IMG/VR virus record: IMGVR_UViG_3300015360_000024
Span: 1-64,000 of that record
Origin: a virus
DNA length: 64,000 bases
Strand: one strand, 5' to 3'
Shown: piece after piece, positions 44,292-56,547 of the stretch
Position numbering within the stretch: the first letter of the stretch is position 1
Layout of the letters: each line of letters starts with the position of its first letter
Notes under the pieces: model-generated
Seen by the model: the letters and a program-made list of their open reading frames with translations, nothing else
Told to the model about the DNA's origin: nothing
Database searches by the model: none
Position numbers and translations under genes: made by a program

Positions 44292-44418
44292 TGGACCAAC
44301 CAGGAGTTGAACCTGGATCTCTCCCTTGCATGGGTAACCATTTCTCGGCCGGCTCGCTTGCGCGAACAATGGATTTAAAACGGGTTTTTTGAGCGTGCTG
44401 CCGTTGCACCATCGGTCC
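44292..44418 (-). ncRNA. tRNA-Y RNA chimera 3
   Basis: GGACCGA/UUGGUCC-A; insert with UUGUUCGC-GCAA-GCGAGC(C)GG and GGUUACC. Confidence 0.8.
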
Positions 44419-47870: not shown

Positions 47871-47874
47871 AAAT

Positions 47875-47951
47875 TGACGAACAAGAAGTGCAGCTGAGCG
47901 TTTGGATCAGATTATTAGTCAGATTGATAACTCAACTACGACGGCTCGTCA
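47875..47951 (-). ncRNA. Y RNA-like a
   Basis: 5' UGACGAGC(C)G..GUAGUUGAGUUAUC ... CUCAGCUGC..UUGUUCGUCA 3'. Confidence 0.8.
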
Positions 47952-47959
47952 GAAAAAAC

Positions 47960-48019
47960 GGCGAACAAGGAGATGATCGTGGGGTCATTTTCAAGGTAAC
48001 CCATGATCTTCGGCTCGCC
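47960..48019 (-). ncRNA. Y RNA-like b
   Basis: 5' GGCGAGC(C)GAAGAUCAUGGGUUACC ... UUGUUCGCC followed by a U run. Confidence 0.85.
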
Positions 48020-48026
48020 AAAAACG

Positions 48027-49267: not shown

Positions 49268-49331
49268 CGCGAACAAGAAGATGAACCTGGGGGAAATCTT
49301 AAATGGATAACCCAAGCTCGAACGGCTCGCG
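49268..49331 (-). ncRNA. Y RNA-like c
   Basis: 5' CGCGAGC(C)G...UUGGGUUAUC ... UUGUUCGCG followed by a U run. Confidence 0.85.
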
Positions 49332-49340
49332 AAAAAGATA

Positions 49341-49466
49341 GACGAACATGGTGCGTGGTTGGACGTTGAGAGCGGATTCAAACCGCTACCTCCGGGGTTT
49401 TCAGCCCAGGCGCTCTCTCAGTTAAGCTACTCCGATGGTGCGGTAATCCAATCACTTCGGCTCGTC
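49341..49466 (-). ncRNA. Y RNA-like d enclosing a tRNA-Phe(GAA)-like domain
   Basis: Ends GACGAGC(C)GAAG / AUGUUCGUC; upper stem UUGGA/UCCAA; internal D arm, CU-GAA-AA loop, T arm AGCGG-UUUGAAU-CCGCU; acceptor only 3 bp. Confidence 0.75.
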
Positions 49467-52587: not shown

Positions 52588-52660
52588 CGGGCGCAACGGG
52601 AATCGAACCCGCCTGGTCTTGATCGACAATCAAGCGCCCTCACCAGAGAGCAATACACCC
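52588..52660 (-). tRNA. tRNA-Asp(GUC)
   Basis: Cloverleaf, G73. Confidence 0.85.
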
Positions 52661-52733
52661 AGAGAAGAAACGGGCAGGCGAGCTTGTATCGCCTTGTGGA
52701 GCTTATGAGCATCCAACCCGCTTCAGAGAGTCG

Positions 52734-53639
52734 TTACGAGCGAGGACGAGCGCCGTTGCCGTTGCCACCAATGTTGGTCATCAGGGCGAGGGCCTCGGAC
52801 TGAGCCTTCGAGTTGGCAGCACCGTCGACTGCTGCGCGAGCCAGCTTGACGTTCTCCTCGTAGGCCGTCTTGAGCTGAGTCTGCAGTTCCTTGATCTGCG
52901 CGTCTGCGGTGGCAGCCGTCTGCGCCAGCCGCGCGTTGTCGAACTGGAGCTTCTCCACATGGGTAGTGTTCTGGATCGTGGCGATCTGCGCCTGGTGGCT
53001 GAAGTCCTTCGTCAGCACGTTCTTCAGGATGGCCTCTGCCCTGGTGACCTCCTTCTTCACTTCCTCGTCGAAGGTGGCGGCCTTGGCGAGGGCAGCCTGG
53101 TACTCGGTCTCCTTCGTCTTCAGGACGAACTCGCGGTTGGCGACGTCCTTCTCGAAGGCCTCCTGGCGATCACGCTCCTGGTTGTTGCGCACCCGAACCT
53201 GCTCGTTCCAGCTGTCGTTGTCGTTCTTGCGGGCCTGGGTGAGCTTGTAGGTGTAGTCCTCTTGCTCGCGAGTCCGGGCTTGGGCCAGCTGGTTCACCAG
53301 GTTCTGGTGGTCCAGTTCGATCTGCTCCTTCTGCTTCGCCAGCTCGTCGAGGGTCGCCGCGTGCTGGGCCTTGACCTCGTCGATCGTCAGGAGCACCTGA
53401 TCGACCCCGTGCAGGTTCTGCATGTCCTGCTTCTTGAGGGCGATCGAATCGTCGACCGCTTGTAGTTCCGCGTGCTTCTGGATGATCTCCTCGGAGATCT
53501 TGCTCAGAGTCCCCTGGATGGTGACTCCAGCGGAAGTGATGCCGCTGAGCGTCTTCGAGAGGTCGATGCTCTGCGCCTTCGAGATGGATGCGGCATTGCG
53601 GGTCGCCTGTGCCTGCTGCTTCTTCGTCTTCGTTGCCAC
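52734..53639 (-). CDS. long coiled-coil protein
   Basis: 301 aa, Q/E/K/A-rich heptads; GTG start after GGAGAG. Confidence 0.8.
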   Translation of the reverse strand: MATKTKKQQAQATRNAASISKAQSIDLSKTLSGITSAGVTIQGTLSKISEEIIQKHAELQAVDDSIALKKQDMQNLHGVDQVLLTIDEVKAQHAATLDELAKQKEQIELDHQNLVNQLAQARTREQEDYTYKLTQARKNDNDSWNEQVRVRNNQERDRQEAFEKDVANREFVLKTKETEYQAALAKAATFDEEVKKEVTRAEAILKNVLTKDFSHQAQIATIQNTTHVEKLQFDNARLAQTAATADAQIKELQTQLKTAYEENVKLARAAVDGAANSKAQSEALALMTNIGGNGNGARPRS

Positions 53640-53753
53640 GGTAGCTCTCCTGGAAATGATTGAACCCCAAAACGGGGACACCTAGGCCTGTAATTGGGCC
53701 GCGTGTACTCTCGCAGGACCGTCTGACATCGAAGGGCAATTGTCTACGGGTCG

Positions 53754-53838
53754 CGGAAGACAGAGGACTCGAACCCCATGCCCCGTAAGCATCATCCCGC
53801 TTCGAACGGGCGCCCCTGCCATCAGGAGTATATCTTCC
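53754..53838 (-). tRNA. tRNA-Ser(CGA)
   Basis: Long variable arm, G73. Confidence 0.85.
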
Positions 53839-53912
53839 ATGCCGCCTCAACCCTTGCGGGAAGCTTTTAAAGGACTCGGTGCTGCCACCGAAGCTTTACG
53901 AAGCGCAGATCC

Positions 53913-53990
53913 TGGTGCCCCCAGAAGGACTCGAACCTTCAACAAACCGGGTAAGAACCGGGTGCTCTATCCAAATTGAGCTATGGAGGC
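53913..53990 (-). tRNA. tRNA-Lys(CUU)
   Basis: Cloverleaf, CCA. Confidence 0.9.
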
Positions 53991-53995
53991 TAGGC

Positions 53996-54057
53996 GGGAC
54001 GATAACCATCATCTTCGGTCCGTTGCCGGACAAGAAAGTTGAGGACGAATAGGTCCC
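53996..54057 (-). ncRNA. minimal circularly permuted Y RNA-like module (no tRNA body)
   Basis: GGGAC/GUCCC closing stem; UUGUCCG-GCAA-CGGAC(C)GAAG; UGGUUAUC. Confidence 0.75.
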
Positions 54058-54114
54058 ATAAAATCATCAGGTACAACCATGCTGATGAGCCATGCCGTCG
54101 CGGCAAACGTCGGG

Positions 54115-54187
54115 TGCCCCGAGGTCGAGTCGAACGACCTTCTCCTGATCTTCAGTCAGGCGCTTGGACCACCCAAGCTGTCGGGGC
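54115..54187 (-). tRNA. tRNA-Phe(GAA)
   Basis: Cloverleaf. Confidence 0.9.
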
Positions 54188-54213
54188 AAAAGGGGGCTCA
54201 TGAGGACACCCCC
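54188..54213 (-). terminator. rho-independent terminator-like hairpin
   Basis: GGGGG...CCCCC-UUUU directly before tRNA-Phe. Confidence 0.5.
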
Positions 54214-54330
54214 GCGTCATAAACAACTATTCGGTTGTCAGAGATTTGTCGTCGCAAAGGCCTCGGCTCAGGTTGTCCAGGATTCACACATGGTGAAGTT
54301 ACGCCTGGTCGTGCTTCGCTTTTGGCTTCG

Positions 54331-54403
54331 ATGGGGAGGTGAGACTCGAACTCACAACATTCGGCTTCAGAGACCGACGTTCCGCCAGTTGAACTACTCC
54401 CCA
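54331..54403 (-). tRNA. tRNA-Gln(CUG)
   Basis: Cloverleaf. Confidence 0.9.
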
Positions 54404-54418
54404 AAATCAGATCTGTCG

Positions 54419-54489
54419 TAGGGCTGCAGGGAATCGAACCCTGGTCGGCCGGTTAAAAGCCGGTTGCTCTGCCATTGAGCTACAACCCC
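54419..54489 (-). tRNA. tRNA-Lys(UUU)
   Basis: Cloverleaf. Confidence 0.9.
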
Positions 54490-54544
54490 AGAATGGGAGA
54501 AGTAGCTCGTGTTTTCGGTTGATTGAATTCATTGGATCTTTCAG

Positions 54545-54627
54545 TGGGAGTGGGAGGAGTTGAACCTCCAAGTGCTCATCACACGACTGGTTTACAGCCA
54601 GCTTGCGTCGCCAGTTGCCGCACTCCC
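54545..54627 (-). tRNA. tRNA-Tyr(GUA)
   Basis: Long variable arm, CU-GUA-AA. Confidence 0.9.
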
Positions 54628-54631
54628 AGAA

Positions 54632-54670
54632 ACGAAGAAAGCCTCCAAGGGGTTTTTCCTTGGAGGCTTC
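54632..54670 (-). terminator. terminator hairpin upstream of tRNA-Tyr
   Basis: AAGCCUCCAAGG-loop-CCUUGGAGGCUU followed by UCUUCGUUUC. Confidence 0.6.
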
Positions 54671-54903
54671 TGGTCTAGGTATTTACAGTCTACCTATGTC
54701 AGAAGCCCCCTGGGATCATTCGCCTTGGCCTGGAGGTGGAACGGGCGGGGATAGGTTTCCAGGCAGCCGACGGTCTCCACGCTCAACGCAATAAACCCAC
54801 GACGCCACGAGCGATTGCTCGTACCGAGGCAGGCTTGCGTTGTTTTGGTGGATGAAGAAGACATGACCGTTGGTGTTTGCTTGGAGGTTGCTGTCGCTCT
54901 AAT

Positions 54904-54981
54904 TGGTAGCGGGAGTGGGATTTGAACCACACGGCCTCAAGGTTATGAGCCTTGCGAGCTACCAGGCTGCTCTATCCCGCA
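54904..54981 (-). tRNA. initiator-like tRNA-fMet(CAU)
   Basis: 1:72 mismatch, A11:U24, CCA; only two G:C pairs next to the anticodon loop. Confidence 0.85.
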
Positions 54982-55205
54982 GACCGAAGACTAGCGCAAA
55001 AATCTGCAAATAGTCAAGGAGAAGGTTGGTCGGATGCGTAAGTGACCGAATTTCTGTAGATCGCGATGGTCACGGCTAAATGTCATACATGTGCCTAATA
55101 GGTGAAGGCGGCGTTACGTTATGGAAAGGACTTGATTTAGTACAAATTGTCCGCATACTCAAGGGGACCTACAATTGTAGGACTACCAGGTAAGCGAGGT
55201 CTGCC

Positions 55206-55535
55206 ATGCAGTACACCCGAGTTCTCATAGCGAAGGTCGCCCTTCGTGTTGCGACGGAAGACGAAGTCTTCTGGGTCGAGCAGTGCATTAAGCAGGGTTG
55301 CGGATGCGCCGAGGAGATCGCGAAGCTCCGGAAGCTCGCCGCCCTGCCCAAGGCGATGTTCTGTGGAGACGATGTCTCCCTGATCAAGATCGCGGACTCC
55401 AACAAGATGTCCGCCTTCGACGAAGATCACCTTCTATCGTGCGAGCGCTGCGCCAGGATCGGCCAGTACATCGCCAGCATGCCGAACCCCGGCACGCCGG
55501 CCGAAGTAAAGTCGATGGAGCTACGCGCAGGCTGA
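55206..55535 (+). CDS. hypothetical protein
   Basis: 109 aa, GAGG RBS. Confidence 0.65.
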   Translation: MQYTRVLIAKVALRVATEDEVFWVEQCIKQGCGCAEEIAKLRKLAALPKAMFCGDDVSLIKIADSNKMSAFDEDHLLSCERCARIGQYIASMPNPGTPAEVKSMELRAG

Positions 55536-55556
55536 GTACAACAACGACGAGACAAT

Positions 55557-55590
55557 GGCCGGCAGCCTACGGGCTAGCCGGCCTTTTTTG
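55557..55590 (+). terminator. rho-independent terminator
   Basis: GGCCGGC-AGCC-TACG-GGCT-A-GCCGGCC-TTTTTT. Confidence 0.8.
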
Positions 55591-55624
55591 TTTTCTACAA
55601 GGTATCTAGACAATTGAATGCACT

Positions 55625-55927
55625 ATGGATAGCGTGGCCGGGATGAAGGGCATCCTGGCGTTCTTGGCAGTAGCCACGCTGATGGTAATCGCGACGATCG
55701 GTCTCTCTGGTGAGGGTCCGATCTGGACGAAGTACTTCGGCGGAGGGACGGTCCTTCTGATCTTGTTGCTGATCCTGCAGCAGCTCTCAAATATCCCTTC
55801 GACGATCGAACTGAAGAAGATGTTACTCGGCGCAGAGGCGGCTGCTGCAGCAAGATCTGAGCAGATAGTCCCCGAAGATGACGACATCGCTGACAGCACC
55901 CGTGGCCGGCGCAGCGCCAGGAACTAA
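55625..55927 (+). CDS. membrane protein with two TM segments
   Basis: Two hydrophobic helices. Confidence 0.65.
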   Translation: MDSVAGMKGILAFLAVATLMVIATIGLSGEGPIWTKYFGGGTVLLILLLILQQLSNIPSTIELKKMLLGAEAAAAARSEQIVPEDDDIADSTRGRRSARN

Positions 55928-56547
55928 TGGCTGGCCGCATCCTCATACTCGACGTTGATGCTGATAAGTACGACGGCATCGTTGAGGCGCTTCGGAAGAA
56001 GCCGTCAGTCCGCGTTGTGTCGATGGATCGCGAGGCGCGCAAGCACTTGCGCGAATGCCCGGCGTGCAATCGGAAGCTGGCCAAGGAATCATCCTTCACG
56101 CTCGACGAGAAGATCGTGGATGCCTTAATCAAGGTCGCTCAGAAGATGAGGATCACGAAGACGGTCGTCTTGGTGAATGAGGATAACCCGATTGAGTCGT
56201 TCTCCTCGGTCGAGCACGAGCGATGTGTTGAGGTTGATACCGTTGTGATTCACCGCGCCATGACGCTGGGCCTATTGAAGTCGTTCATGGATGGCGCAAG
56301 GCTCACCCATTTCGTGACCACGATGGGGTTGGACTTCCTCTCAGGAGAGAAGCCAGCCGCGCCATGCACAATGTTCGTGCTCGATGGAGAGGTTGTCGAA
56401 ACCAGCGGCGAGCTGACGATCGAGAATGTAAAGTTCAAGGATGTGCATCGGGCAGGATCTGTCGCCCGAGATGGAGCAAGGGCGGTGAAAGCCATACCCG
56501 AGCACGTGATAAGCTTCGTAACCAACGGCCAGATGAGCCTTATCTGA
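55927..56547 (+). CDS. hypothetical protein
   Basis: 206 aa, CPAC. Confidence 0.7.
   Translation: MAGRILILDVDADKYDGIVEALRKKPSVRVVSMDREARKHLRECPACNRKLAKESSFTLDEKIVDALIKVAQKMRITKTVVLVNEDNPIESFSSVEHERCVEVDTVVIHRAMTLGLLKSFMDGARLTHFVTTMGLDFLSGEKPAAPCTMFVLDGEVVETSGELTIENVKFKDVHRAGSVARDGARAVKAIPEHVISFVTNGQMSLI

Follow-up and report, generated by a model that had tools for sequence, protein, structure and literature searches.

A loop-capped, strand-swapped RNA module resembling a Ro60 site between two tRNA genes of an uncultivated phage

UUAUC is a motif of Y RNAs and sbRNAs, and in the published Ro60 complex the protein contacts mainly one RNA strand. In the Y RNAs described so far, to our knowledge, Ro60 docks via a stem formed by the RNA's own two ends. 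At the Ro60 site of Y RNAs, one C bulges out of a helix of 7 bp (PMC4726728), and Xenopus Ro60 contacts the GGUCCGA strand (PMC4201824). YrlA, a tRNA-mimicking Y RNA that Ro60/Rsr binds in bacteria and phages, has a GNCGAAN0-1G motif near its Ro stem and a conserved YUAY (PMC4201824), and it has been likened to a tRNA that is circularly permuted and has its acceptor stem closed (bioRxiv 10.1101/312249). Moreover, Yrl1 and Yrl2 of Thermus phage phiLo bind phage Ro60 in vitro (PMC12135203), showing that phage Ro60 proteins use phage-encoded Y-like RNAs. No description of a permuted or capped Ro60 site was found in the literature searched, in which reviews were incompletely covered and an earlier mention is possible.

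The record IMGVR_UViG_3300015360_000024 is that of an uncultivated phage of 193,958 bp, and its first 64 kb are the window, i.e., the whole stretch of DNA (64,000 nucleotides) analysed here. A minus-strand array at 33.6–55 kb of the window contains 44–45 tRNA genes. Between two of these genes lies a stand-alone module of 62 nt that is read from 54057 to 53996 on the minus strand, 54 nt past tRNA-Phe(GAA) and 5 nt ahead of tRNA-Lys(CUU) (Table 1). Its RNA (5' to 3') is GGGAC-CUAU-UCGU-CCUCAACUUUC-UUGUCCG-GCAA-CGGAC(C)GA-AGAUG-AUGG-UUAUC-GUCCC, and the minus strand reads exactly as a first-pass annotation, made from the DNA letters, had given it. That annotation described a stand-alone permuted Y module without a tRNA body. 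In agreement with this description, ARAGORN (intron mode, relaxed threshold) recovered the bodies of three tRNA chimeras described below and none around the module, and the Rfam tRNA model had no match between the flanking tRNA-Phe and tRNA-Lys. Neither Y_RNA and YrlA nor any other Rfam model matched the module at E ≤ 10 (52600–55600); the YrlA scan of the window returned just trivial sub-threshold matches that spanned adjacent tRNAs. Megablast of 53000–56000 against deposited phages gave no match. A coding function of the module was rejected, as only spurious short ORFs that overlap the tRNAs are found there, and so was an intrinsic terminator, for which a weak GGGAC/GUCCU match did not rise above shuffles. 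A minus-strand promoter match was not found in the neighbourhood of the module.

Table 1. Positions of the stand-alone module, its parts and neighbours, the tRNA chimeras and the helices found in Ro60 leaders.
Feature	Position	Strand	Basis or remark
Whole module (P1, internal loop, P2, internal loop, P3 with GCAA cap, UUAUC)	53996..54057	-	Sequence, covariance model, ortholog
P1 5' strand GGGAC	54053..54057	-	Partner GUCCC 53996-54000, pair probability ~0.95
P2 5' strand UCGU	54045..54048	-	Partner AUGG 54006-54009; spacing to P3 16 nt
P3 5' half UUGUCCG, counterpart of the 3' strand in the canonical Y RNA lower stem	54027..54033	-
GCAA (GNRA) tetraloop, closing the side at which the termini of a canonical Y RNA lie	54023..54026	-
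P3 3' half CGGAC(C)GA, bulged C at 54017, counterpart of the Ro60-contacted 5' strand of Y RNAs	54015..54022	-
P2 3' strand AUGG; its GG opens the conserved GGUUAUC	54006..54009	-
UUAUC motif (YUAY of YrlA)	54001..54005	-	UUAYC invariant across modules
P1 3' strand GUCCC	53996..54000	-	Followed by GCCUA, then the first tRNA-Lys base
tRNA-Phe(GAA), upstream neighbour	54112..54188	-
Upstream part of the spacer, hairpins GCCG-CGA-CGGC and UCAUCAG-loop-CUGAUGA, independent of the module	54058..54111	-
tRNA-Lys(CUU), downstream neighbour	53913..53990	-
Chimera 1, tRNA body with permuted module (GUUC/GAGC allele)	44145..44275	-	R1 72.8 bits, Rfam tRNA 41.7 bits
Chimera 2, tRNA body with permuted module	44292..44418	-	R1, ARAGORN, Rfam tRNA
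Chimera 3, tRNA body with permuted module	43233..43364	-	R1, ARAGORN
Leader Ro helices	L375:733-752, L380:1132-1150, L384:1119-1140, L392:1161-1182, L398/L421:1169-1185
Leader Ro helices, further	L400:1123-1139, L412:1152-1172, L433:569-586, L438:551-570

Energy folding of the module gave pair probabilities of ~0.95 for P1 and ~1.0 for the inner 5 bp of P3. For P2 the probabilities were ~0.5 in the window copy and 0.7–0.9 in the copy of a related phage (L013). Those of the two outer P3 pairs (U.G/U-A) past the bulged C were ≤0.04; energy folding prefers a CUUU/GAAG register there, in which C54017 is still bulged. The fold-stability z-score of the module was modest (−1.8 to −2.1). Across the module family, P2 is a 4-bp helix (CCGU or UCGU with AYGG) whose 3' strand contributes the GG of an invariant GGUUAYC and whose 5' strand lies at a constant 14–17 nt upstream of P3, and the internal loop between P2 and P3 is asymmetric. 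P3 takes the form (U-A)(U.G)[bulged C](G-C)(N-N)(N-N)(C-G)(G-C) and is capped by a short loop. UUAYC is invariant in all modules and so is the bulged C, and the cap loops are free to vary, including GCAA, UUCG, GAAA, GUAA, UUUA, and longer ones.

A covariance model, R1, was seeded with seven tRNA-embedded modules of this and other phages, and the stand-alone copy was left out. Because MAFFT of all modules put P2 one column out of register and aligned the shorter helices wrongly, the seed was restricted to these seven well-aligned rows and the other modules were realigned by the covariance model. With the alignments fitted to the model structure and the shuffle test inflated by related sequences, 97.4% of the cells were paired among 23 modules, five pairs showed two-sided changes, none of 500 shuffles did as well, and slid partners paired in 24–46%. 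Read in the same way, the alignment of 50 modules from phages, metagenomes, and bacterial genomes had 97.2% of the cells paired and two-sided changes in 6 of 12 pairs (54 cells), a value reached by none of 500 shuffles, and its slid partners paired in 28–50%. The variable P3 pairs of the 50 modules were U.G (25), C-G (17) or U-A (8) at one position and C-G (31) or U-A (19) at another; one P2 pair was G.U (18), G-C (15) or C-G (12), and another was U-A, G-C or A-U. Thus, the suggestion of the first-pass annotation that covariation supports the bulged helix was borne out by the covariance-model alignment that it had proposed, as 97% of the cells were paired and 5–6 pairs changed on both sides, compared with 24–50% pairing of slid partners. 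Covariation specific to the stand-alone element is thin because it has one close ortholog only (92% identical), and the covariation case draws on paralogous and heterologous modules. Judged from these alignments, the module family is under structural selection.

Similar to the stand-alone copy, three other sites of the genome carry the permuted layout, in this case within tRNAs. ARAGORN in intron mode predicted these three chimeras as complete tRNA bodies with an insert of 37–58 nt, and the Rfam tRNA model scored two of them, with 41.7 and 40.8 bits. They have complementary acceptor strands of their own and an 8-bp Ro helix that is capped by GCAA. As the acceptor strands are complementary and the Ro helix is closed, the chimeras correspond to YrlA in tRNA strand order. 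The stand-alone module and the chimera inserts share P2, P3, and UUAYC, and one covariance model finds both, so that the common permuted layout given in the first-pass annotation is upheld. The closest paralog of the stand-alone copy in the genome is the chimera at 44145–44275, with 55 of 68 aligned bases identical (81%). The Ro helices of the genome are mostly of the GUUC/GAGC type (9 of 11), and GUCC/GGAC was found only in the stand-alone copy and in the Ro60 leader. The differences from the chimera helices had been called compensatory, which holds for a U-A to C-G change that affects both sides, but not for a U.G to U-A change, which affects one side only.

Additional Y-type and tRNA-like RNAs were also observed in the genome. 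Short Y-like RNAs in canonical order are located at 47958–48022 and 47874–47953 (minus strand), for which the nematode sbRNA model RF01656 gave 31.8 and 25.6 bits, respectively (gathering score 38). At 49306–49363 (minus strand), the junction of successive canonical Y-type RNAs (3' strand, U run, next 5' strand) imitates the permuted layout and scores 15.8 bits with R1; tandem duplication is a plausible route to permutation. A YrlA-like RNA in canonical order is found at 49340–49466 (minus strand), with GACGAGCCGAAG ..., a tRNA-like core, and ... AUGUUCGUC followed by a U run, and its core is a partial match of the Rfam tRNA model (34 bits). In the tRNA/Y RNA region and beside a chimera, 43126–43208 (minus strand) matched the Rfam bacterial small SRP RNA with 42.1 bits (threshold 40). 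Finally, ARAGORN predicted a tRNA with a four-base anticodon (UAAG) at 38823–38900 (minus strand) and at L002:5798–5872, which overlaps tRNA-Leu(CAA) by a few bases. The tRNA(UAAG) at 38823–38900 is conserved in the related phage.

The genome codes for a complete Ro60 protein of 545 amino acid residues at 173486–175123, which matched TROVE with 134.8 bits and vWA_Ro60 with 210.5 bits. Its gene is ~120 kb from the module and not adjacent to it. The identities between this Ro60 and bacterial Ro60 proteins were 55–60%, and relatives with identities of 76–94% exist. In viral contigs, a single-sequence search with Ro60 found no relatives, and an alignment-based search found relatives with identities of up to 54%. 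Ro60 was also identified in both other near-complete module-bearing phages tested and was not seen in three module-bearing fragments. Directly upstream of Ro60 is a long Y RNA in canonical order (L001:1150–1337; genome ~173210–173397, plus strand), with AGCGAGCCGAAG ... GGUUACC ... ACUUGUUCGCU followed by a U run; the part after GGUUACC is also given as UUGUUCGCU followed by a U run, and the arrangement is that of a classical rsr/Y RNA locus. The Ro60 leader itself contains a hairpin (L001:1388–1428; genome 173448–173488), CCUUGUCCG-AGGGAU-CGGAC(C)GAAAAGG, whose 3' end lies within the Shine-Dalgarno region, at a distance of 16 nt from the ATG. Capped bulged Ro helices that are 9–21 nt ahead of the Ro60 start and abut the Shine-Dalgarno sequence were found in the window phage, 8 of 58 other phage Ro60 loci, and two Polyangia genomes. 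From the background of 0.06 matches per kb, ~0.36 matches were expected in the leader windows, and the pairs of the leader helix covary. As a putative mimic of a Y RNA, the leader Ro helix might allow Ro60 to repress its own translation (autogenous repression).

The module had also been thought portable, and it was indeed found at the anticodon-arm position of tRNA bodies, at a T/acceptor junction, in free spacers, behind rtcR, and in Ro60 leaders. Module counts from the viral and metagenome scans are lower bounds (at least 120 metagenome matches), and the majority of the matches listed were in tRNA bodies; pattern scans with NN at the covarying positions gave mostly noise and were usable after filtering. 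Free-standing modules beside tRNA-Phe were found in the window, L013, L269, and L017. The L269 copy is in the same Tyr-Lys-Gln-Phe order and has a closing stem CGGG-GCACA/UGUGC-CCCG and a z-score of −3.2 (0 of 200 shuffles). The L017 copy has a closing stem GGGAC(AUC)/(GAU)C-GUCCC and a z-score of −2.1. A complete tRNA-Phe(GAA) with CCA at L362:2236–2350 (minus strand) has a module inserted after its T stem and ahead of its 3' acceptor strand. The inserted module belongs to the same sub-type as the window copy (UCGU ... UUGUCCG-UUUA-CGGACCGA ... ACGG-UUAUC), and removal of 54 nt leaves a perfect tRNA-Phe(GAA) with CCA; this insertion site is unlike that of the anticodon-arm chimeras. The RNA-repair locus of Salmonella (rtcR/rtcB) includes rsr and yrlA. 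In L346, a bacterial metagenome contig without tRNA genes, a free-standing module with a terminator-like hairpin (L346:3084–3175, plus strand) comes straight after rtcR and beside a divergent rtcB. In addition, tRNA-order chimeras occur at the rsr loci of bacteria, in MAGs of Planctomycetota, Armatimonadota, and Polyangia, so the permuted form is not limited to phages. For instance, at L485:100–545 of a Planctomycetota MAG (chimera L485:262–395), as well as in L434, L436, L437, and L442, chimeras are interleaved with canonical short Y RNAs. In these bacterial chimeras the Ro helix is closed and the acceptor ends are open.

R1 found the stand-alone module with 30.2 bits and a genome-wide E of ~5e-4 to 1e-3 (match 54001–54048). 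The match covered the full model (positions 1–52 of 52). A regular expression for the capped helix (UGUYCG, a short GNRA-type loop, and CGRRCCG) matched five sites of the 194-kb genome but had no match in any of 50 dinucleotide shuffles, and the five sites were the three tRNA chimeras, the stand-alone module, and the Ro60 leader. In a related phage, IMG/VR contig 3300037339_000563 (loci L002 and L013), whose DNA identity to the phage of the window is mostly 68–84%, the ortholog at L013:7896–7957 is 92% identical, the order tRNA-Phe, module, tRNA-Lys(CUU) is kept, and R1 scored 28.5 bits. For comparison with L013, the identities of four other spacers in the compared stretch were 44–75% and those of the tRNAs were mostly 84–96%, with two at 47–62%. 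The five differences between the two copies are a GCAA to GUAA change that keeps the GNRA loop, a U to C change by which a G.U pair of P2 becomes G-C, and three substitutions that lie in the internal loop. The relatives G002 and G003 share the first 48 nt of the spacer with 96% identity and then continue directly with tRNA-Lys; the 62-nt module and a few flanking bases are cleanly missing, which shows the module to be a discrete unit. As G002 and G003 do without it, the module is dispensable in that lineage.

Two other parts of the tRNA array were also conserved. For the hairpins at 54058–54111, which have a freely varying loop, the identity is 96% to G002/G003 and 86% to L013; they are conserved as much as or more than most tRNAs compared with L013 and had no Rfam match. 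Between tRNA-Met and tRNA-Tyr, the 277-nt spacer 54628–54904 (minus strand) contains a 13-bp hairpin (54638–54670) with a weak U tail. Its identity to L013 is 91%, and the spacer could hold a further non-coding RNA or a site of processing.

Several other explanations of the stand-alone module were considered. That a hairpin arose by chance in this spacer of the tRNA array is hardly credible. The modest fold z-score (−1.8) is what such a hairpin might show, but a covariance model that was not trained on the module detects it with E 5e-4, the element is conserved in synteny, and the five regular-expression matches compare with none in 50 shuffles. It is very improbable, too, that the module is the junction of two tandem canonical Y RNAs, in which the 3' strand of one RNA is followed by the 5' strand of the next. 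Such a layout does occur at Nocardia rsr loci and at 49306–49363 (R1 15.8 bits). This reading fails for the module because partner strands are lacking nearby: neither CGRRCCG nor UGUYCG was found within ~2 kb on the module strand. Moreover, tRNA genes are on both sides, and the two strands are joined by a GNRA loop of 4 nt and enclosed by P1 and P2. A processing or stability element of the tRNA operon that acts independently of Ro60, either as a structured 5' leader directing cleavage upstream of tRNA-Lys by RNase P, RNase E or RNase III or as an exonuclease barrier, is distinctly unlikely. The end of the module 5 nt ahead of tRNA-Lys, the other conserved hairpins in the same spacer, and the lack of a minus-strand promoter match nearby, with a weak and non-significant match as its own terminator, are consistent with such an element. 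However, the module shares its sequence-specific homology with Ro-helix modules, down to the invariant bulged C and UUAYC, modules also occur at unrelated sites such as the anticodon arm, the T/acceptor junction and mRNA leaders, and G002/G003 make the same tRNA-Lys without it.

It is also unlikely that the module is a decaying remnant without present function, in which a module-bearing tRNA lost its D, anticodon, and T arms so that an acceptor-like P1 and the module were left. An L362-type tRNA-Phe and a chimera like that at 44145–44275 are the ancestors proposed. In favour of a remnant, the module always adjoins tRNA-Phe, is 81% identical to the chimera paralog, and is missing from G002/G003; its 3' part, ACGGUUAUC(G/A)UCCC(C)GCC(A), is almost unchanged between L013 and L362, and in the latter it forms the acceptor 3' strand with G-CCA. 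Decay is difficult to reconcile with the conservation of the module (92%, compared with 44–75% in four neighbouring spacers), with the few substitutions, which keep the GNRA loop and improve P2, and with the persistence of free-standing versions in the distant arrays L269 and L017. Moreover, such an origin is compatible with a present function. The module probably did originate, as far as sequence comparison can tell, from a tRNA-linked module that lost its tRNA core. For the candidate donors, the identities were 73% to the L362-type tRNA-Phe and 81% to the chimera at 44145–44275. From the 3' strand of P1 onwards, L013 reads GUCCC-GCCAA, and the GUCCC-G-CCA at the 3' end of this copy looks like the acceptor end found in the tRNA-Phe of L362.

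The reading that we favour, and regard as reasonably likely though by no means certain, is that the module serves as a minimal Ro60-binding handle, strand-swapped and loop-capped, that would be processed out of the tRNA operon transcript. No minus-strand promoter match of its own and no convincing terminator were found, and the module would be transcribed within a polycistronic tRNA precursor and released by the tRNA-processing enzymes. With tRNA-Lys only 5 nt further on, RNase P cleavage there would define the 3' end of the module, and 3' maturation of tRNA-Phe would define its 5' side. The ring of the phage Ro60 would then bind the bulged helix on its outer surface, as in Y RNAs; we infer that Ro60 tolerates the capped helix. 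As the tRNA-like effector domain found in YrlA is missing, the module would serve as a simple ligand: it could occupy or gate Ro60, make the protein more stable, or compete with the other sites that Ro60 binds. Before processing, the module could instead hold Ro60 on the pre-tRNA transcript. Each specific role further downstream (gate or sponge, cis-tether, or competitor of the leader) is much less likely than the handle itself. The GUCC/GGAC allele, shared only with the Ro60 leader, fits Y-type RNAs that compete with the leader for Ro60.

A broader reading, which we hold to be doubtful, is that the loop-capped Ro helix is a transferable Ro60 'address tag' that phages and bacteria graft onto varied RNAs, with the stand-alone copy as the free competitor arm of an autoregulatory circuit. 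The hosts of such a tag would include tRNA bodies, the tRNA-Phe acceptor junction, operon spacers, and the leader of the Ro60 mRNA. Spacer RNA released from the tRNA operon would pull Ro60 away from the Ro60 mRNA, and the synthesis of Ro60 would thereby be linked to the output of that operon. If Ro60 binds the module, the Ro60 site would be a modular tag, and searches for Ro60 targets would change, because current Rfam models miss every copy found. The module would then also be a natural minimal ligand of ~50–60 nt for structural work, and, together with the leader hairpins, would open Ro60 autoregulation and the role that Ro60 has in phage tRNA biology to direct tests.

Similar to YrlA (RF02553), the module carries the Ro-site motif on a C-CGAA(G) strand and a YUAY motif (UUAU in the module) ~10 nt later, is encoded by a genome that also encodes Ro60, and is tied to tRNA-like sequences and tRNA-processing enzymes. 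Different from YrlA, in which the two RNA ends pair to form the Ro stem and the acceptor-like stem is closed, the Ro stem of the module is capped by a GNRA loop and the ends of the RNA are at the opposite side (P1). The module also has neither T nor D arms, is not matched by the Rfam YrlA model, and, unlike the canonical Y RNA, is not adjacent to rsr. Furthermore, it reads ACCGAAG, which departs from the strict GNCGAA in that A replaces the first G (vertebrates have U there). At the YrlA motif, GCCGA(A/C/G) is found in the phage's chimeras and canonical copies. Similar to the lower stem of vertebrate Y RNAs and to nematode sbRNAs, the module has a helix of 5+2 bp that is broken by one bulged C, with a UUAUC motif further on. 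It differs from these RNAs in its swapped strand order and in the lack of a 3' oligo-U tail, of its own terminator (it is not an independent gene), and of an Rfam Y_RNA match. In the first-pass annotation the contact strand was considered closer to that of vertebrates; GGACCGA is in fact one letter from GGUCCGA, but this closeness may mean little because the letter change is compensated on the opposite strand. Similar to Yrl1 and Yrl2 of phiLo, the module is a phage-encoded small hairpin-type RNA with a CGAA motif and a (predicted) ligand of phage Ro60. The phiLo RNAs, however, adjoin the Ro60 gene, have no tRNA-array context, and are in canonical order, with a terminal 5'-3' stem that flanks the CGAA bulge. 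Compared with the tRNA-body chimeras, which keep complete acceptor, D, and T arms, the module keeps only a closing stem of 5 bp. What would be new, as far as sequence comparison goes, is a docking stem conserved as a self-contained hairpin that could sit anywhere. Given that its strands are joined by a GCAA tetraloop and that distal partner strands are lacking, the module is not a canonical Y RNA, but it may work like one.
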